From a virus, in the UHGV virus genome UHGV-1517735: a DNA stretch of 20,725 bases. One strand, given 5' to 3'. Within the stretch, counting starts at the first letter, position 1. Every line of letters starts with the position of its first letter. A program made the position numbers and the translations under genes. The notes under the pieces were generated by a model, which made no database searches, had not been told where the DNA came from, and saw nothing but the letters and a program-made list of their open reading frames with translations. Positions 2,694-17,149 of the stretch are shown piece by piece.

Positions 2694-2938
2694 GCAGCGT
2701 TGCTCACGGGACGATATACACGTTGCTGAACAGGAGGTTTTTTACCCTGGAACTCTGCCGGGCTTGCTGCCTGACGTTCATCAAGCCAACGCTCAACTTC
2801 GTCACGGTTCCATGCGCAGCGTTTGTCAGTGATATACCAGCGTTTAGGAAATTCCCCTGCGCGCTCCATACGGTCGATAGTGCTCCATGACAGTGGCACC
2901 ACCGCCAGGAGTTCCTTCTTACCTAATGCACCTTTCAT
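2690..2938 (-). CDS. AlpA/Xis-family excisionase or DNA-binding regulator
   Basis: 82-aa ORF; LSWSTIDRMERAGEFPKRWYI...CAWNRDEVERWL fits the AlpA/Xis HTH pattern; RBS AGAGAGG; sits between int and the recombination genes. Confidence 0.75.
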   Translation of the reverse strand: MKGALGKKELLAVVPLSWSTIDRMERAGEFPKRWYITDKRCAWNRDEVERWLDERQAASPAEFQGKKPPVQQRVYRPVSNAA

Positions 2939-2987
2939 AAATACCTCTCTTGGTTGCAGTGCGGCGCGTGTGGCACCGCGGTGGTGG

Positions 2988-3869
2988 TTACATAGATGTT
3001 TCGTTTAATTCTTCCCGACGAACGCTGTAAACGTCGGTGGCTTTTGCCAGCAGTTCGTCATCATCTGAAAGTTTTTGTGCAATGTATTTGTAAGCCTTAT
3101 CCAGTTCGGAGACGGTGCTGTAATTCATCGCTGCGCTGGTAAAGGCCATCAGCATTTCTTCTGGATCACGGCTATCCGCTTTACGCGTTTGCTCATCATG
3201 CTTTTTCACTGGTTTAGCGTTGATCAGACTGTTCATTCCCGCAGCAGTAGTCGTTTGCGGAGTAATGTCTCGCTCAACGCGCGGTGCCGTTTCCTGTAAT
3301 TCGTCAGGGGTGTAAACACCGAGAAGCACATCAGGAGCGTGCAGGCGAGCCCATCGTTTCGTGCAAAGATAGGCAAGCTGCTGGCGCGGATCCTGTTCCC
3401 ACAATGGAGAGTTACGCACTCCGGCTTGCGCCATACTGATGGTAAGCTCACGGGGTTCTGCTTCTCCTTTAAGAACTGCTGACACAGTTACCGTCAGATT
3501 CGGTGATTTATCTGTTTTGCCGTTAACATTCGACCAGTCACCGCTCCAGCGATAATTCAGGCGTGTCGCTAGCAGGCTGGAAGAGGATACGACCGCGTTT
3601 ACCAACTGTGCTTCGTAGCCTAACGTTCCGTTTACCACATGCGTTTTCTGCGCCACGGCGAAAGGGTTCATTCCCCACTGTGCCGCCTGCATGGTCACCG
3701 CCAGACAATCGGCAGGTTTGCCTTCAAGATGTTTCGGTACAGTCGCTTTGCTTTGTGACATCAACTCCGCGAAACGCACCAGTTGATTCATGCCCTCCGG
3801 GCTGAAGATTGCCGCAGCAGTACCTACAGTTGCGCCTGGTTGTGATGTGATTGCGATATCATTGCTCAT
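2988..3869 (-). CDS. recT: RecT-family single-strand annealing recombinase
   Basis: 293-aa ORF; RecT-like core; ERDITP segment resembles phage annealing proteins; 4-nt overlap (ATGA) with the upstream exonuclease gene. Confidence 0.8.
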   Translation of the reverse strand: MSNDIAITSQPGATVGTAAAIFSPEGMNQLVRFAELMSQSKATVPKHLEGKPADCLAVTMQAAQWGMNPFAVAQKTHVVNGTLGYEAQLVNAVVSSSSLLATRLNYRWSGDWSNVNGKTDKSPNLTVTVSAVLKGEAEPRELTISMAQAGVRNSPLWEQDPRQQLAYLCTKRWARLHAPDVLLGVYTPDELQETAPRVERDITPQTTTAAGMNSLINAKPVKKHDEQTRKADSRDPEEMLMAFTSAAMNYSTVSELDKAYKYIAQKLSDDDELLAKATDVYSVRREELNETSM

Positions 3870-5157: not shown

Positions 5158-5234
5158 TTACCGTTGAGGTAATAATTATGCGTATTTGGTTTGATGTCAA
5201 TAGATATGAGTTAAAAAAATTACCCATTAGGTAA
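5158..5234 (-). promoter_or_regulatory. PL-like leftward early promoter with two flanking operators
   Basis: Operators TTACC-GTTGA-GGTAA (5158-5172) and TTACC-CATTA-GGTAA (5220-5234); minus-strand -35 TTGACA at 5195-5200; AT-rich -10 region around 5172-5180. Confidence 0.55.
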
Positions 5235-5291: not shown

Positions 5292-5876
5292 TTATTGTTT
5301 GTTTTTTTCGTTCTGGTTGATGACAAATTCAATGTAACTTTCGATCTTTGCTTTCTCAGTTTCGGGTAACAATGCGTAGCGCGAGCGGTCATAGTTGATG
5401 GTCGCAGGGTCGTGCGGGTGAATCAGTAATTCATAGCCGTGACGCCCGAATGCGGATGCAACATTCTCCAGGGTGGAAATGGAAACGCTGACCTCATTGT
5501 TTAACAGGCGGCTGATTGTCACCTGGGCGACGCCGGATGCGCGGTGAAGTTTTCCCTGTGTTGAAAGGTCGCGGCTTTCGCTCATCCAGCGTTCCAGGTT
5601 GTGAGCCGCCAGCTGACCTATATCGCTCGGGCCGACAGGCTGAAAACCTTCCTGAGAAAGCGAGCGATCGATATCAAGCCAGTTACGTGGTTTATTGGCG
5701 GCAGCTTCAATTTTTCGCGCAACCTGGTCGCCGATAACCTTCTTGCCAAGAGCCCAGCGGTTTACCAGATTTGCCTGAGTTCCAAGTTTTTCTGCCATCC
5801 GCGTCTGAACACCATTGAATTCACGGTCGATCAAGTCGTTGAGATTTTGCCTGCGGACGTCCTGGATACTTTTCAT
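5292..5876 (-). CDS. CI-like prophage repressor with two HTH domains and no LexA-like peptidase domain
   Basis: 194-aa ORF divergent from the Cro-like gene; N-terminal HTH (QTRMAEKLGTQANLVNRWALGKK) and a second HTH-like segment (SGVAQVTISRLLNNEVSVSISTLENVASAFG); no S24 peptidase signature. Confidence 0.8.
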   Translation of the reverse strand: MKSIQDVRRQNLNDLIDREFNGVQTRMAEKLGTQANLVNRWALGKKVIGDQVARKIEAAANKPRNWLDIDRSLSQEGFQPVGPSDIGQLAAHNLERWMSESRDLSTQGKLHRASGVAQVTISRLLNNEVSVSISTLENVASAFGRHGYELLIHPHDPATINYDRSRYALLPETEKAKIESYIEFVINQNEKNKQ

Positions 5877-11858: not shown

Positions 11859-11897
11859 GAGTAGATTATGCATGATGAATTTGATGGTTTTGAATAC

Positions 11898-11925
11898 TGC
11901 CGCCAACTATGGCGGCTTTATTTTG
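11898..11925 (+). terminator. Rho-independent terminator upstream of terminase genes (tR-prime-like position)
   Basis: GCCGCC / GGCGGC stem with AACTAT loop, followed by TTTATTTTG. Confidence 0.65.
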
Positions 11926-11934
11926 CATGGTACT

Positions 11935-11967
11935 ATTACCACAACGGTAACTATTACCACGGTGGTT
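11935..11967. promoter_or_regulatory. Two operator-like palindromes immediately upstream of the terminase small subunit
   Basis: TTACC-ACAAC-GGTAA (11935-11949) and TTACC-ACGGT-GGTTA (11953-11967), the second abutting the start codon. Confidence 0.5.
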
Positions 11968-12564
11968 ATGATGCCTGCTGAACCTAAAACCTATAAACGC
12001 AAATCAACGCAATTTAAGCCACTAACAGCAATGCAGGAGGCTTATTGCCAGTCATACATCAAAACGCCTGAAAACCAGACTCAGGCAGCGATTAATGCAG
12101 GATTCTCCCCAAATACAGCGGCAGTTAAAGCCAGTGTCATGATGCGCGATGAACGCATTCAAAAACGGATTGCCGAGTTGATGGAGGAGCGCAACAAACG
12201 AATGCGCGTCAGTGCTGATTACGTTCTCATGCGCCTGGTGGAGATCGACCAGATGGACGTGATCGACATCCTCAACGACGATGGGAGCCTTAAGCCAATC
12301 CGCGAGTGGCCGAAAATCTGGCGCACTACGCTTAGTGGCTTTGATCTGTCATCGACCATCATGAACATGAACGAGGATTCGATAGAGACAATCCTCAAAA
12401 AAATTAAATGGCCTGACAAGGTGAAGAACCTCGAACTGATTGGTAAGCACGTCGACGTCAACGCATTCAAAGAACGCCTGGATGTTAATGTGAATGTGAC
12501 AATTGCTGATCGCATAGCAGCAGCCAGGAAGCGACTCAAAGAACGTCAGGATGGCAATCAGTGA
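11968..12564 (+). CDS. Terminase small subunit (start uncertain; upstream in-frame ATGs rejected because they span the terminator)
   Basis: HTH-like segment TQAAINAGFSPNTAAVKASVMMRDERIQKRI typical of small terminase subunits; directly upstream of and overlapping the large subunit. Confidence 0.7.
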   Translation: MMPAEPKTYKRKSTQFKPLTAMQEAYCQSYIKTPENQTQAAINAGFSPNTAAVKASVMMRDERIQKRIAELMEERNKRMRVSADYVLMRLVEIDQMDVIDILNDDGSLKPIREWPKIWRTTLSGFDLSSTIMNMNEDSIETILKKIKWPDKVKNLELIGKHVDVNAFKERLDVNVNVTIADRIAAARKRLKERQDGNQ

Positions 12565-14036
12565 CAGATGCAGCGTTATCTCCTGAAGAGCAGTTGATCG
12601 AGGATATTGCAGGGTTCACTCACGATCCGCTTGGCTATGCCCTCTATGCGTTCCCGTGGGGGGAAGAGGGGACTGAACTGGCACATGCTACCGGCCCACG
12701 TCAGTGGCAGGCCGATGCGTTCCGAGAGATACGTGATCACCTGCAGAATCCAGAGACGCGCTATCAGCCGCTTATGCTGGCACGCGCTTCTGGTCACGGT
12801 ATTGGTAAATCCGCATTCATCTCAATGCTGATCAACTGGGGCATGTCCACTTGCGAGGATTGTAAGGTCGTGGTGACCGCCAACACCGACAACCAGCTAC
12901 GAACGAAGACCTGGCCGGAAATTATCAAGTGGTCGAACCTTGCTATCACGAAAGACTGGTTTACCTGTACTGCTACCGCGATGTACAGCAATGACCCAGG
13001 GCACGACAAGCGGTGGCGGGCTGACGCAATACCCTGGTCTGAGCACAACACTGAGGCATTCGCCGGACTACACAACGAGCGCAAACGCATCATCGTGGTA
13101 TTCGATGAAGCGTCGAACATTGCGGATTTGGTGTGGGAAGTTGCCGAGGGTGCGCTAACGGACGAAGACACTGAGATTATCTGGGTGGCATTCGGAAACC
13201 CGACGCGTAATACCGGACGTTTCCGCGAATGTTTCCGCAAATATAAACACCGCTGGAAAACTGCGCAGATTGACAGCCGGACGGTGGAAGGCACTAACAA
13301 ACAGCAGTTGCAGAAATGGGTTGATGACTACGGGGAAGACAGCGACTTCGTTAAAATCCGTGTGCGCGGCATATTCCCGGATGCATCTGAATTGCAGTTT
13401 ATCCCTACCGGACTTACTGACGAGGCAATGAAACGGGTGGTCACCGCTGCGCAGGTTGCACATGCTCCGGTGATAATCGGCGTTGACCCGGCATACTCAG
13501 GCGTTGATGACGCGGTGATATACCTGCGGCAGGGGCTGCACAGTAAGGTGCTATGGACTGGTAACAAGACCACCGACGATCTGATTATGGCGAAGCGTAT
13601 CGCTGACTTTGAAGACCAGTACCAGGCTGACGCGGTGTTCATCGACTTCGGTTACGGTACCGGTCTGAAGTCAATCGGTGACGGTTGGGGGCGTACATGG
13701 CAACTTGTTCCGTTCGGTGGCGCGTCTACTGATCCGCAGATGCTTAACAAGCGTGGGGAGATGTTCAACTCATGCAAGACATGGCTGAGGCTGGGCGGCA
13801 TGCTGGATGACCAGGAAACAGCGGACGACCTGTCGGCGGCAGAGTACAAAGTTCGCGTGGACGGTAAAATCGTTATCGAACCGAAGGAAGATATCAAGGA
13901 GCGGCTTGGGCGTTCGCCGGGTAAAGGCGATGCGCTACTGCTGACGTTTGCGTTCCCTGTGTCTAAGCGTCTGCGAATTCCCGGGCAGCAGAACCAGCAA
14001 GGCAAGGCCATCACAGATTACGATCCCTATGCTTAA
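12561..14036 (+). CDS. Terminase large subunit
   Basis: 491-aa ORF, GTG start overlapping upstream stop; Walker A ARASGHGIGKSAF, Walker B-like IIVVFDEASNI, C-terminal nuclease-like IGVDPAYSG..D region. Confidence 0.92.
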   Translation: MTDAALSPEEQLIEDIAGFTHDPLGYALYAFPWGEEGTELAHATGPRQWQADAFREIRDHLQNPETRYQPLMLARASGHGIGKSAFISMLINWGMSTCEDCKVVVTANTDNQLRTKTWPEIIKWSNLAITKDWFTCTATAMYSNDPGHDKRWRADAIPWSEHNTEAFAGLHNERKRIIVVFDEASNIADLVWEVAEGALTDEDTEIIWVAFGNPTRNTGRFRECFRKYKHRWKTAQIDSRTVEGTNKQQLQKWVDDYGEDSDFVKIRVRGIFPDASELQFIPTGLTDEAMKRVVTAAQVAHAPVIIGVDPAYSGVDDAVIYLRQGLHSKVLWTGNKTTDDLIMAKRIADFEDQYQADAVFIDFGYGTGLKSIGDGWGRTWQLVPFGGASTDPQMLNKRGEMFNSCKTWLRLGGMLDDQETADDLSAAEYKVRVDGKIVIEPKEDIKERLGRSPGKGDALLLTFAFPVSKRLRIPGQQNQQGKAITDYDPYA

Positions 14037-14077
14037 TCCGCTTGAGGGGATAATGTCGTTGATATCCTCTGATGAGG

Positions 14078-14106
14078 ATAAAACAAAGCCAGCTCATCGG
14101 CTGGCT
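14078..14106 (-). terminator. Rho-independent terminator downstream of the minus-strand cargo ORF
   Basis: AGCCAGC / GCTGGCT stem with 6-nt loop, followed on the minus strand by TTTGTTTTAT. Confidence 0.5.
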
Positions 14107-14109
14107 GTT

Positions 14110-14123
14110 TGTGACATGTCACA
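14110..14123. repeat. 14-bp palindrome TGTGACATGTCACA (copy 2 of GTGACATGTCAC)
   Basis: Identical 12-bp core to 11847-11858; lies between the cargo ORF stop and its terminator. Confidence 0.5.
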
Positions 14124-14126
14124 GCG

Positions 14127-14546
14127 TTACTTAATGGCATCAAATCCAGCGTTGATGGCTTCCGCAATATTGATGGCACTTGTTTTATCGAATTGCCTAT
14201 TCTGAATAAGCGCCGCATGCAGGCATTGTAACTTCATGTTGTATAAGTGTTCGCTCATGTAATCATTATCACTTTTTGTTTTAGCGCAAACAGAGCGAGA
14301 AATATCAAACACATCGCCTTTTTCCATTTCAGAACGTTGTGCTGTTATCCAGTCATGGAACGTAACGCTAGTACCATGGTCTTCGCTAAGAGTTAACCCG
14401 GCCAGTCCCTCACTCTGAATTACTTCGTAATGCATTTCATTACCAGCAAAAACGCCATAAAAAATGCAGTCTTCAGCCTGAACGATACGAGAATATTTTA
14501 ATGGCCATTCATTTAGATACTTAGCCAACATATCAATTGTCTTCAT
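14127..14546 (-). CDS. Hypothetical cargo/moron protein (139 aa), opposite strand to flanking late genes
   Basis: ORF with RBS AAGGTGA; AT-rich codon usage unlike neighbours; own terminator; no domain recognised, no predicted TM segment. Confidence 0.7.
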   Translation of the reverse strand: MKTIDMLAKYLNEWPLKYSRIVQAEDCIFYGVFAGNEMHYEVIQSEGLAGLTLSEDHGTSVTFHDWITAQRSEMEKGDVFDISRSVCAKTKSDNDYMSEHLYNMKLQCLHAALIQNRQFDKTSAINIAEAINAGFDAIK

Positions 14547-14552
14547 GATCTC

Positions 14553-14580
14553 ACCTTAAAAAAATGCCCGGCGAACCGGG
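14553..14580 (-). terminator. Terminator-like hairpin immediately upstream of the cargo ORF RBS
   Basis: GCCCGG / CCGGGC stem with TTCG-type loop followed on the minus strand by ATTTTTTT, then AAGGTGAGATC-ATG. Confidence 0.55.
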
Positions 14581-14657
14581 CGAACTGGAAGCAATGAGTT
14601 ATGCCTTCCGTGGTTGTACTGGTTTACAGCATGAAGTCATCGCAATGGCGTCCTGCT

Positions 14658-14701
14658 GTAAAAAGGGCGGTGATAGTTCTTCAAGGGAAACCATCACCGC
14701 C
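14658..14701 (-). terminator. Possible terminator hairpin downstream of the tRNA
   Basis: 9-bp stem GGCGGTGAT / ATCACCGCC with 18-nt loop, followed on the minus strand by CTTTTTA. Confidence 0.35.
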
Positions 14702-14744
14702 AAGCCCCTGGAACTTCTGGCATCACGGTCCTTAGGCGTGATTC

Positions 14745-14821
14745 TGGCGTGGCATGCAGGATTCGAACCTGCGACCAACCGCTTAGAAGGCGGTTGCTCT
14801 GTCCAACTGAGCTAATGCCAC
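14745..14821 (-). tRNA. tRNA-Arg, anticodon UCU (argU-like, phage-borne)
   Basis: 77-nt cloverleaf read on the minus strand: acceptor GTGGCAT/ATGCCAC, D-stem GCTC/GAGC, anticodon stem ACCGC/GCGGT with loop CUUCUAA, T-stem GCAGG/CCTGC with TTCGAAT loop, encoded CCA. Confidence 0.92.
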
Positions 14822-15143
14822 AACGCTGAGAGCACTTAGCCTGTTAAGGCGCCACACTTTGTCGCGGCTCCATAAATGCTCTCATCGTTGTACCCTCGTC
14901 TCTTCCGAGGCGTCACACCGAATCGCCGGGATGGTGAATCCCCGTGCGCGGAATAAAACCGCTCGACTTGCACATTCCGGCTACCTGGTTCGTTTGCCCG
15001 AGCAAGGGAGGGTGCCCCTTAAACGTATCCAGACCGCTATCGGCGCATGTGCCAGACGCCGTACTGCTCAAAATAAAAGCTCACTCCACCTGTTCAATTT
15101 AACGACAAGCCAGTCAGGTTAGTAACCGGAATGAACTCTTTGG

Positions 15144-15158
15144 TTACCTGAAAGGTAA
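15144..15158. promoter_or_regulatory. Operator-like palindrome TTACC-TGAAA-GGTAA upstream of the head module
   Basis: Perfect match to the recurring palindrome; intergenic. Confidence 0.5.
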
Positions 15159-15248
15159 TAATTTGTGCGTTAAATGTCAACTACCTACGATAAATAAATC
15201 ATATGTGGTTAAATTGGTAATAATTTAATTGCGTACGGAGTCATTGAT

Positions 15249-15455
15249 ATGTGCATGGGTAGCTCACCATCAGTGCCTGCAACACCAGAAGTTCAGGCAG
15301 CACCACAGGAGCAGGATGCCGCCGTTGTTGATGCCCGCGACGAAGAAACTCGTCGCCGTCGCGCTGCTGCTGGTCGTAGTTCTACGCTGCTTACCGGTTC
15401 TCAGGGCGACACATCAACCGCTAATACCAGCGGTAAAACGCTGCTTGGTCAGTAA
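15249..15455 (+). CDS. Small Ala/Gln/Arg-rich protein (68 aa), possibly a virion internal protein
   Basis: RBS CGGAG; begins MCMGSSPS; located directly upstream of the portal gene; loose resemblance from memory to small podovirus internal proteins. Confidence 0.5.
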   Translation: MCMGSSPSVPATPEVQAAPQEQDAAVVDARDEETRRRRAAAGRSSTLLTGSQGDTSTANTSGKTLLGQ

Positions 15456-15469
15456 CCGGAGTCATTGAA

Positions 15470-17149
15470 ATGGCGGAAACAACTAAAGAGCGATTGAACA
15501 AACAGTTCGCACAACTTGAAAGCGAGCGTCAGTCGTTCGAGCCGCACTGGCGCGAGTTGAGTGATTACATCAACCCGCGTGGTTCCCGCTTTCTGACTTC
15601 TGAGGTCAACCGTAACGATCGACGCAATACACGCATTATTGATTCGACCGGGACTATGGCGGCGCGCACTCTCGCCAGCGGCATGATGTCAGGCATCACA
15701 AGCCCCGCGCGTCCGTGGTTTCGCCTGGCTACGCCAGATCCTGAAATGATGGATTATGGCCCTGTTAAGTTGTGGCTTGAGGCGGTGCAGAACCGCATGA
15801 ACGATATGTTCAATAAGTCGAATCTCTATCAGTCGCTGCCGCAGTTATACGGAAGCCTCGGCACATACAGCACTGGCGCAATGGCGGTGCTGGAGGATGA
15901 CGAGGACATCATTCGTACAATGCCATTCCCGATAGGAAGTTACTACCTGGCTAACTCACCTCGTGGCAGTGTGGACACCTGTTTTCGCAAGTTCTCTATG
16001 ACTGTTCGTCAGCTTGTTCAGGAGTTTGGACTAAATAACGTCAGCGAATCCGTAAAAAGCATGTGGGAAAGCGGCACCTACGAGAGGTGGATTGAAGTGA
16101 TGCATTCGGTTTACCCGAACATTGACCGCGATACATCGAAGCTGGATAGCAAGAACAAGCCATTCAAATCGGTTTATTACGAGGTTGGTGGCGATAACGA
16201 CAAGTTGTTGCGTGAGTCCGGATTCGATGAGTTTCCAATTATGGCTCCGCGCTGGGAAGTTAACGGCGAAGATGTTTATGGATCATCATGCCCGGGTATG
16301 CTGGCGCTTGGACCTGTTAAGGCATTGCAGCTTCTCCAGAAGCGCAAGTCGCAGTTGATTGATAAAGCCACCAATCCGCCGATGGTTGCTCCGACTTCCC
16401 TCAAGAATCAGCGCGCCTCCCTTCTTCCTGGCGACATCACGTATATCGATCAGATTACTGGTCAGGATGGTTTCAGGCCTGCTTATCTGGTTAACCCCAG
16501 TACAGCAGATCTGGTAGCAGACATTCAGGACACTCGTCAAATCATTAACAGCGCCTACTTTGTCGATCTGTTCATGATGTTGCAGAACATCAATACCCGC
16601 TCGATGCCTGTTGAAGCGGTGATTGAAATGAAAGAAGAAAAACTTCTGATGTTGGGTCCGGTTCTGGAGCGTCTGAACGACGAATGTCTTAATCCTCTCA
16701 TTGACCGCGCTTTCTCGATGATGGTGCGTAAAAACATGCTGCCGCCACCGCCTGACGCGATGGAAGGTATGCCCCTGAAGGTCGAATACATTTCCGTCAT
16801 GGCTCAGGCGCAGAAGTCTATCGGCCTGTCCAGTCTGGCATCCACGGTCAACTTCATTGGTCAACTTGCGCAAGCGAAACCAGAAGCTCTCGACAAACTC
16901 AACGTTGATCAGGCGATTGATGCATTTGCTGATATGTCCGGTGTGTCTCCAACCGTCATTGTTCCGCAGGAACAGGTTGAGCAGGCTCGCCAGCAACGGG
17001 CACAGCAGCAACAGCAGCAACAAATGATGGCGATGGGGATGGCAGCGGCACAGGGTGCCAAGACGCTAAGCGAAGCTAAAACTTCGGATCCGAGTGTTTT
17101 GTCAGCTATGGCGAATGCAGTTAGTGGTCAGGGGGGGCAATCACAATGA
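15470..17149 (+). CDS. Portal / head-to-tail connector protein
   Basis: 559-aa ORF in the terminase-portal-scaffold-capsid order; Gln/Ala/Met-rich C-terminal tail (QQRAQQQQQQQMMAMGMAAAQG) reminiscent of podovirus connector proteins. Confidence 0.8.
   Translation: MAETTKERLNKQFAQLESERQSFEPHWRELSDYINPRGSRFLTSEVNRNDRRNTRIIDSTGTMAARTLASGMMSGITSPARPWFRLATPDPEMMDYGPVKLWLEAVQNRMNDMFNKSNLYQSLPQLYGSLGTYSTGAMAVLEDDEDIIRTMPFPIGSYYLANSPRGSVDTCFRKFSMTVRQLVQEFGLNNVSESVKSMWESGTYERWIEVMHSVYPNIDRDTSKLDSKNKPFKSVYYEVGGDNDKLLRESGFDEFPIMAPRWEVNGEDVYGSSCPGMLALGPVKALQLLQKRKSQLIDKATNPPMVAPTSLKNQRASLLPGDITYIDQITGQDGFRPAYLVNPSTADLVADIQDTRQIINSAYFVDLFMMLQNINTRSMPVEAVIEMKEEKLLMLGPVLERLNDECLNPLIDRAFSMMVRKNMLPPPPDAMEGMPLKVEYISVMAQAQKSIGLSSLASTVNFIGQLAQAKPEALDKLNVDQAIDAFADMSGVSPTVIVPQEQVEQARQQRAQQQQQQQMMAMGMAAAQGAKTLSEAKTSDPSVLSAMANAVSGQGGQSQ

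Follow-up and report, generated by a model that had tools for sequence, protein, structure and literature searches.

The window analysed here, that is, the whole 20,725-nt stretch of the virus genome UHGV-1517735, is a 20.7-kb piece of a Uetakevirus (epsilon15/phiV10 group), and its closest records are the Escherichia phages HEMP4, PAS61 and phiV10. Its genes for the terminase large subunit (TerL) and the portal are split by a gap (14037-15469), in which an earlier note on this DNA had described a minus-strand open reading frame (ORF) of 139 amino acids (aa), here called ORF139, and a minus-strand tRNA-Arg(UCU). Both are present where that note had placed them, but it had left undescribed a 68-aa plus-strand ORF and about 430 nt of conserved non-coding sequence. 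The region 14087-15180 of the minus strand is one conserved accessory cassette of Uetakeviruses and not a one-off insertion. Its elements are, in the order of the minus strand, a promoter with an operator, a leader RNA, an optional tRNA, the terminator T1, a second leader (which includes the terminator T2, a U-run and a Shine-Dalgarno sequence, SD), the cargo ORF and the terminator T3 (Table 1). On the right, the gp3-like ORF and the portal gene (15249..17149, +) are transcribed away from the cassette promoter.

The fixed nature of this slot emerges from a set of loci gathered by exact match to a conserved 19-20-mer of the leader RNA. The set holds 264 non-redundant loci, 105 of which are Uetakevirus slots with TerL and/or portal adjoining. 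The slot is present in all 105; the description of the region as inserted in the earlier note is therefore not supported, as the slot is a fixed feature of the genus and only the coding sequence (CDS) is exchanged. Homology to phiV10 (96-99% by pairwise blastn) stops at 14129 and restarts at 14546, so that the segment exchanged relative to this phage (14130-14545) is the CDS from ATG to stop. The exchange of cargo is thus exact at the CDS boundaries, the start codon and the stop codon. The earlier note had held that the same ORF at this junction in all relatives would speak against its proposal; the ORF varies between relatives, and an accessory role is therefore favoured.

The signals in front of the cargo are conserved in their turn. 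The second leader is 80-83% identical in epsilon15, Tyrion and Klebsiella phi13.3 despite their different cargo, and the T2 stem shows a compensatory change (GCCCGG/CCGGGC versus GCCCAC/GTGGGC). First-cargo families were counted in the 55 of the 105 slot loci that have a recognisable junction: at least 15 unrelated families lie behind the one junction GCCCGGTTCGCCGGGCATTTTTTTAAGGTGAGATyATG, which reads as RNA GCCCGGTTCGCCGGGC-AUUUUUUU-AAGGUGA-N4-AUG and whose stem has compensatory variants. A pairing of the cargo start codon with an upstream hairpin (I16) was judged to be due to chance, as it needs codons specific to ORF139. Among 5426 complete Escherichia coli genomes, 1096 match some of the region and only 114 match at least 80% of it, which corresponds to the ORF139 allele. 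The minus-strand hairpins T1, T2 and T3 are each followed by a U-run, and the site equivalent to T3 is annotated as a rho-independent terminator in the phiV10 record. These data support the earlier description of an exchangeable cargo gene without assigned function that has its own translation signals and flanking terminators.

Table 1. Features of the TerL-portal slot and its borders, ordered by position in the window
Feature	Position	Strand	Description
TerL	12561..14036	+	Left border of the slot; counterparts annotated as terminase large subunit in PAS61 and phiV10
T3	14087..14106	-	Hairpin of -13.0 kcal/mol, then UUUGUUUU; closes the cassette and faces the TerL end
ORF139 (PHROG 4846)	14127..14546	-	139 aa, ATG start
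Second leader	14547..14659	-	T2 hairpin (14581-14566), U7 run, SD AAGGTGA (14557-14551); adjoins the cargo ATG
T2	14581-14566	-	Hairpin of -12.7 kcal/mol, then AUUUUUUU
T1	14660..14701	-	Intrinsic terminator after the tRNA; 14-bp stem (14701-14666), -23.2 kcal/mol, then CUUUUU
tRNA-Arg(UCU)	14745..14821	-	Anticodon tct; ARAGORN; Rfam RF00005, 73.3 bits, full length
P6, 3' hairpin of the leader RNA	14822..14890	-	Inverted repeat I1; -31.6 kcal/mol, z -4.55; 3' boundary coincides with the 5' end of the tRNA
Leader RNA core	14891..15062	-	Helices P1, P2, P4 and P5, and a pseudoknot of the P4 loop with downstream GGUG
Second promoter-like site	15070..15097	-	TTGAAC-16-TATTTT, just 5' of the RNA core; weakly supported
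Operator-like palindrome	15144..15158	.	TTACCTGAAAGGTAA; overlaps the -10 TACCTT (15157-15152, minus strand)
Cassette -35	15175..15180	-	TTGACA, read from the sequence; 17 nt before TACCnn in the operator
gp3-like ORF (phrog_831)	15249-15455	+	68 aa; right border, together with the portal
Portal	15470..17149	+	Right border; PF12236, E 2e-187

The cassette shares several traits with morons and other accessory hotspots (lambdoid morons, P2/P4): it is an independent unit with its own promoter and terminator and a composition unlike that of its neighbours, it lies between essential genes in opposite orientation to them, and its content differs among relatives. Unlike morons, it occupies a fixed slot with conserved expression signals, in which exchange is limited to the CDS and has the ATG and the stop codon as its boundaries. 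Furthermore, its promoter carries an immunity operator, so that the cassette is predicted to be expressed during the lytic phase and not by the prophage.

The AT-rich character previously attributed to ORF139 is confirmed. The gene has a GC content of 0.40, and of 0.38 at third codon positions (GC3), against 0.47-0.57 and 0.41-0.62, respectively, for the 14 other ORFs of the window; the 200-nt GC profile gives 0.41 over ORF139 and 0.53-0.57 on both sides. Its proposed ribosome-binding site corresponds to the AAGGTGA that lies 4 nt upstream of the ATG. Judged by its conservation, ORF139 is a real, selected gene, since its ratio of nonsynonymous to synonymous substitution rates (dN/dS) relative to the PAS61 homologue is 0.27 and since 103 homologues (55-99% identity) are found in Enterobacteriaceae, for the most part in prophages within sequenced genomes. 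Uetakeviruses are the only sequenced phages with the family, and the homologues from Leclercia, Klebsiella and Cronobacter all sit in the same TerL-portal slot.

The protein is mildly acidic (isoelectric point 5.1) and has no hydrophobic segment (maximum KD19 hydropathy 0.54), which agrees with the acidic protein without membrane helix described before. It matches the PHROG 4846 profile over its full length (E 5.7e-88, residues 1-139 on positions 1-139 of 140). No other profile recognizes it: there is no Pfam match at E <= 0.1 nor at E <= 10, no NCBIfam match, no family of the PADLOC-DB defence-protein profiles at E <= 1 and no match in a PDB sequence profile search. The relatives retrieved by a word-indexed search are all 'hypothetical' and come from Enterobacteriaceae only, while an exhaustive HMMER search of 1.84 billion representatives yields 41 matching clusters, none of them informative. 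An AlphaFold2 monomer model (predicted local distance difference test score, pLDDT, 67.7) comprises a poorly defined N-terminal part made of a beta-meander and helices, and a confident C-terminal helical hairpin (residues 93-137). Fold searches with this model return generic helical matches only, none of them meaningful. The profile and structure searches that the earlier note had proposed have therefore been run and give no known family, structure or fold, and its statement that the protein carries no recognisable domain stands.

Within the family, the N-terminal domain is variable and the C-terminal hairpin (residues ~93-137) is conserved. This hairpin module also stands alone as a 65-aa ORF, comes after another N-terminal domain in the type of 123 aa found in Cronobacter and Tyrion, and is joined to further modules in forms of 161-204 aa. 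The latter homologues with extra modules are the proteins P0012, P0067 and P0103 and that of locus L160. One extra module carries the motif PLIKYLxENHNPHxSVII...AELV, which is also found as the C-terminus of an unrelated 122-aa cargo. From these sequences, small modules appear to be shuffled within the slot. The assignment of the C-terminal helical module to Sequestin (PF21825) or to another Pfam family was considered and rejected, as there is no match even at E <= 10.

Other minus-strand cargoes at this place include phiV10 gp03 and epsilon15 gp50 (both of the N4 gp49/Sf6 gene 66 family), the repeat protein gp23 of TL-2011b, a DUF2829 protein in Klebsiella phi13.3, three small ORFs in Tyrion and a 143-aa ORF in PAT1. 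The cargo ORFs of Tyrion have an int-alpA RNA between them (Rfam RF02996, 44 bits versus a gathering score of 35.8; L010 3208-3272, +). The commonest cargo belongs to PF13876, the N4 gp49/Sf6 gene 66 family (18/55 loci, E 3e-34, phiV10-type); another allele, of 98 aa, belongs to PF11195 ('Thoeris anti-defense 2-like', E 3e-24), and an HNH_3 endonuclease is also found among the slot cargoes. PF13876 corresponds to Acb4, cyclic-oligonucleotide sponges that inhibit CBASS, and PF11195 to Tad2, which is anti-Thoeris; such sponges are short, homo-oligomeric and made early in infection (bioRxiv 10.1101/2024.12.30.630793, 10.1101/2025.07.12.664507). Two cargo alleles thus match families whose function has been characterised, and both are counter-defence genes.

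As a class, Acb4- and Tad2-type sponges are small homo-oligomers whose interface pockets take up an immune nucleotide signal. ORF139 itself matches neither the PF13876 (Acb4) nor the PF11195 (Tad2) profile at E <= 10. It shares with the Acb4 and Tad2 genes the slot that these occupy in sister phages, together with the promoter, the leader, the terminator-SD junction and the closing terminator, and all encode small, cytoplasmic, non-essential and fast-diverging proteins. It differs from both in the lack of any sequence or profile similarity and in its predicted structure, a small beta-meander and helices ending in a helical hairpin, without confident structural match. As the same slot and the same signals carry Acb4 and Tad2-like genes in relatives, ORF139 is probably a counter-defence protein of a new family; this proposal is made by association and not from any property of the protein itself. 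Of the functions offered in the earlier note, anti-defence is consequently the best supported through these alleles, whereas defence finds no PADLOC match. The conserved hairpin would probably serve in oligomerisation or in a shared contact and the variable N-terminal domain would probably confer specificity.

Alternatively, ORF139 might have a phage-internal or host-takeover role (in replication, packaging or host physiology) and the slot might only be a convenient recombination hotspot. Such a role would suit a slot that also houses an HNH endonuclease, membrane proteins and a repeat protein, an ORF139 devoid of recognisable sponge features or matches, and a modular family that shuffles its modules with others without assigned function. 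However, the alleles replace one another at identical boundaries, hence none is essential to the phage. Moreover, the family is narrow, as its few clusters in the exhaustive search indicate, and fast-diverging, which is typical of arms-race genes, and the two alleles with a characterised family are both counter-defence. A phage-internal role is therefore considered distinctly unlikely.

The regulatory signals upstream of the leader bear on when this gene would be expressed. The -35 hexamer is found in 96/96 operator-bearing slot loci (TTGACA 68, TTGACC 23, TTGACT 4, CTGACA 1). The palindrome TTACC-N5-GGTAA occurs at 11 sites in the window (<=1 mismatch) versus 0.27 expected. Two sites lie on each side of a repressor-like gene (5292-5876, phrog_8), at 5158, 5220, 5932 and 5980; others lie at intergenic promoters (136, 6317, 8213, 8275, 11936 and 11954), and that of the cassette is located between the cassette and the gp3-portal genes. 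An operator within 260 nt upstream of the RNA element is present in 96/102 Uetakevirus-slot loci versus 0/157 loci of other contexts. The epsilon15 record lists a repressor binding site at the equivalent position, adjacent to an integration host factor (IHF) site. With eleven palindromes, some flanking the repressor gene and others at dispersed intergenic promoters, the repressor would seem to govern a multi-operator regulon of the P1 C1 kind instead of one immunity region in the style of lambda. The sites 11936 and 11954 fall inside the first ~30 codons of the listed ORF (230 aa) of the terminase small subunit (TerS), in an odd 'TITTTVTITTVV' stretch (window 11872-11970). The annotated TerS genes of relatives are shorter than this 230-aa ORF, and the true start probably lies downstream, near MMPAEPKTYKRK; if so, the stretch 11872-11970 would be a repressor-controlled promoter for the packaging genes.

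The -10 of the cassette falls within a repressor-type operator, and the promoter is accordingly predicted to be repressed in the lysogen and to fire upon infection or induction. The earlier note had considered that genes of this kind are usually expressed from the prophage; here, the -10 is embedded in an operator that is common to the flanks of the repressor gene, and two terminators separate the promoter from the ORF. Expression of the cassette is thus probably lytic and early, and not from the prophage, which fits a counter-defence role. The competing view, which is that of the earlier note, is a classical moron expressed from the prophage and serving defence, superinfection exclusion or conversion for the lysogen. 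The orientation against the structural genes, the AT-rich composition and the own terminators would agree with it, as would the operator-free promoter-like site at 15097-15070 and the fact that the ORF139 family is mostly found in prophages of sequenced genomes. This site falls in a ~75-nt stretch that is absent from some relatives, and in some relatives the operator promoter directly abuts the RNA element. A moron of this type is nevertheless improbable: the immunity operator overlaps the conserved promoter in 96/102 loci, two intrinsic terminators lie ahead of ORF139, PADLOC gives no match, and the identified slot alleles are counter-defence sponges, which are needed during infection and not during lysogeny.

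The tRNA-Arg(UCU), which both ARAGORN and Rfam recover, is intact but optional: it is present in 55/105 Uetakevirus slots and also lies beside the element at 7 other loci. Intact tRNA-Arg(UCU) genes are also known from other temperate enterobacterial phages (the argU-like genes of Stx phages, for example), from which that of the window differs in being fused to the 3' end of a structured leader, optional and without codon-usage need. AGA codons occur at 2.1 per 1000 in the window genes and are lacking in the terminase, portal, scaffold and capsid genes and in ORF139; codon supplementation as the purpose of the tRNA is thus not supported by usage within the window. It might still be argued that the tRNA, intact, high-scoring and conserved beside the element at 55 Uetakevirus and 7 other loci, is the point of the cassette, that it serves rare AGA codons of phage or host genes and that the ORF is incidental. 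The rarity of AGA in the window genes and its absence from the structural genes sampled and from ORF139 argue against this, and half of the slots keep leader and cargo without any tRNA; this explanation is regarded as highly improbable.

Directly 5' of the tRNA lies a structured leader RNA of ~240 nt (15062-14822, minus strand) that the earlier note had overlooked. Among relatives, the base of its 3' hairpin P6 is conserved and the tip is variable. The covariance model R1 scores the window copy at 134.7 bits (E 8e-42). The structure was judged on an alignment of 42 diverse copies, with slid-partner controls and 500 shuffles: 95.6% of cells are paired versus 30-43% in the slid controls, compensatory changes are found in 17/34 pairs, and 0/500 shuffles reach the observed values. 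Two pseudoknots are candidates. In PK2, the P4 loop would pair with GGUG located downstream of it, and one pair covaries (3 sequences); in PK1, the GCACAU of the P1 loop would pair with AUGUGC further downstream, and this pairing is invariant and hence without covariation support. Several G-U pairs fit only the analysed strand (30-84 U-G in 42/42 copies, 4-20 G-U in 19 and 129-143 G-U in 16).

Other identities of this element were rejected. A protein-coding sequence is contradicted by indels that are not multiples of three and by the strong covariation, and a signal on the opposite strand by the many G-U pairs that would turn into A-C. A fragment of tRNA, transfer-messenger RNA, 6S RNA or RNase P RNA finds no support from ARAGORN or Rfam. 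Rfam 15 gives no match to the leader at gathering thresholds in the window, none at E <= 5 over 14822-15062, nor any at E <= 1 on the leader copies in the loci L007, L008, L010 and L013. The leader sequence matches hundreds of E. coli records at ~83% identity and nothing is annotated there. Literature searches found no prior description of the slot or of the leader RNA.

The element is spread through Enterobacteriaceae and Erwiniaceae and occurs in three contexts, always in sense orientation. The first is the Uetakevirus slot. The second is directly downstream of the cI-type repressor gene and the PL-like promoter of lambdoid phages, including mEp460, cdtI, 2H10, Ayreon, the Stx2a, Stx2c and Stx2k phages and yfdP-yfdT (CPS-53/KpLE1-type) prophages. 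The third is the ban operon, under C1 control, of P1, P7, D6, SJ46 and RCS47, where the element is located between trnI and ban. The P1 copy consists of the core of the element and occupies an unannotated gap of this operon (L008 2501-2669), which also contains a dicF-like region and three tRNAs.

Variants of the element were encountered in each of the first two contexts. In epsilon15 (L006 1530-1730), a deletion that extends from within P2 through the tRNA and T1 joins the P1 hairpin of the leader to the second leader and an Acb4-type cargo, and part of this stretch is annotated as an RNase III site. In a lambdoid subgroup (Stx2a_1447, L012 ~2190-2260, and L114), P6 is replaced by a sequence with a tRNA-like T-arm (GCTGGTTCAATTCCAGAC); ARAGORN finds no tRNA there, and the stretch may be a tRNA remnant fused to the element. 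Elsewhere in mEp460 (L007 206-394, -), the Rha/antirepressor gene contains or adjoins a C4 antisense RNA (83.6 bits) and isrK (67 bits), an arrangement that resembles a P1-type immI module for antirepressor control, here in a lambdoid phage.

The position of the leader recalls that of put, and put-like RNAs were reportedly described by King et al. in 2011. In many phages, the element begins 5-40 nt after operator-overlapped promoters; in mEp460, a PL-like promoter lies ~35-40 nt upstream of it. A sense-strand intrinsic terminator follows the element within ~700 nt in 85/91 Uetakevirus and 62/63 lambdoid (yfdP-type) loci, against 2/91 and 0/63, respectively, in the antisense controls, and in only 1/7 P1-type loci. 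In mEp460 (L007 ~2885-3030), two long-loop terminator-like hairpins that a simple terminator scan missed, GGCGGTACCAG...CTGGTACCGC-UCUUUUU and CAGAGAAGA...TTCTTCTCTG-UUUUG, separate the leader RNA from the first gene of the PL operon. The first genes of this operon are not N-like. For lambdoid phages that lack N, specialists have put forward a put-type mechanism as a guess, and the Q protein of 2H10, a carrier of the leader element, is the closest relative of Q of the N-less phage LLS (PMC12315714). The HK022 put arrangement consists of an early promoter, a nascent structured RNA and then terminators (PMC9378689).

The leader thus has in common with HK022 put and the putL-like RNA of HK639 a structured RNA located in sense orientation right after a repressor-controlled early promoter, terminators before the first genes, and an occurrence in lambdoid phages that show no N gene. 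Short colinear motifs are also shared by eye, namely ACGGCG...CAUGCGUCG, with the same 5-bp stem, and AAUG(N)UGC. In contrast, the leader measures ~170-240 nt and has at least five helices and one or more pseudoknots, whereas put measures ~70 nt and has two stem-loops. Put itself suppresses termination without further factors and relies for this on the zinc-binding domain of the RNA polymerase beta' subunit; rpoC mutations in that domain, such as Y75N, block it. Unlike put, which HK022 carries as putL and putR, the leader is present once per genome without putR equivalent, and its occurrence extends to podoviruses (Uetakevirus) and the ban operon of P1. The leader was rejected as a member of the put family, since blastn of the leader against put gives no match and the covariance model is likewise negative. 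From this analogy, the leader may work like put without being a demonstrable member of its family, a tentative proposal that is somewhat more apt to be wrong than right.

Combined, these data would allow the following model of the cassette to be drawn. In the lysogen, the cassette would be silent. It would fire when the operator is freed of repressor, soon after infection or induction. The nascent leader RNA would act in cis on the transcribing RNA polymerase, as HK022 put does, so that transcription would pass T1 and T2 into the cargo; the same action would let transcription pass the equivalent terminators in lambdoid PL operons. ORF139 would then be made as another counter-defence protein, from a family without known relatives. 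This explanation as one claim, comprising the conserved cassette, the counter-defence role of ORF139, lytic-early firing and a put-like leader acting in cis, is judged to be evenly balanced between right and wrong. The joint claim that the leader is a new class of cis-acting antitermination RNA and that ORF139 is the founder of a new anti-defence family is rated as doubtful.

Several observations weigh against this model. As to the protein, ORF139 is without Pfam, NCBIfam, PADLOC, PDB sequence or meaningful fold match, and its structural model is only moderately confident (pLDDT 67.7), with a poor N-terminal domain. As several cargo alleles (the HNH endonuclease, membrane protein and repeat protein) are not known anti-defence genes, the slot may hold mixed functions. 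As to timing, a consensus promoter scan calls no promoter at the cassette, the -10 (TACCTT) is weak, and the operator-free promoter-like site at 15097-15070 could allow some expression in the lysogen. As to the leader, model R1 has no significant match in HK022 putL and putR or in the HK639 putL-like RNA, even with filters off, and the element is about three times the size of put, is present once per genome and has no putR equivalent. Furthermore, epsilon15 lacks most of the leader and the tRNA and yet keeps the T2-SD junction and an Acb4-type cargo, so that the leader is not strictly required there, and the P1 element lies mid-operon with no terminator detected behind it (1/7 P1-type loci).

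Some of these points, namely the cargo that epsilon15 retains without leader, the mid-operon position in P1 among RNA genes (the dicF-like region and tRNAs) and the failure of the covariance model to match put, would suit the main rival explanation for the leader, in which it is a stand-alone, abundant, trans-acting non-coding RNA (for example an anti-defence RNA, or one acting as decoy or sponge towards a host protein or RNA). Such an RNA would be freed when RNase P cuts at the 5' end of the tRNA or would end at the terminator, and the cargo would be expressed by leaky readthrough. P6 indeed ends exactly at the tRNA 5' end, the element would be delimited as a discrete RNA by the terminator behind it in most loci, and invariant loops and pseudoknots are typical of partner-binding RNAs. 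However, the element is always in operon sense and lies at the very 5' end in two unrelated phage groups, with the first genes located after the terminators; the lambdoid carriers show no N gene; and the P1 helix of the element contains a short put-like motif. A trans-acting RNA is accordingly considered rather unlikely.

Two small ORFs of the region deserve mention. The 68-aa ORF 15249-15455 (phrog_831), which starts MCMGSS, lies directly before the portal gene and is conserved in all relatives. An 83-aa ORF (14564-14815, +) is antisense to the tRNA and the second leader; its equivalents are annotated as hypothetical proteins (PhiV10p04 in phiV10 and gp24 in TL-2011b), and it is almost certainly spurious.

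The new elements brought by this analysis are the ORF139 family as candidate anti-defence genes, the slot as a handle for discovery and, above all, the leader RNA. As the repressor probably controls many scattered promoters, reverse-oriented genes in such prophages need a different reading. The slot offers a positional handle for counter-defence discovery, in which the ORF that follows the terminator-U7-SD junction replaces an Acb4 or a Tad2 sponge; ORF139 and a dozen other families are prime candidates for testing because they replace these sponges in the slot. If the proposed model is true, the at least 15 cargo families behind one junction would be a ready catalogue of undiscovered counter-defence genes. 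The leader would then represent a class larger than put, not detectably related to it and used by Uetakeviruses, P1-like phages and many N-less lambdoid phages, and it would explain the expression of the early-left operon in N-less lambdoid phages, including Stx2a, Stx2c and Stx2k converting phages. Should the leader act in trans instead, it would be a new non-coding RNA among the early phage transcripts. Should it be an antiterminator, the question raised for lambdoid phages without N (PMC12315714) would be answered, and RNA-only processive antitermination would reach well beyond the small put family.

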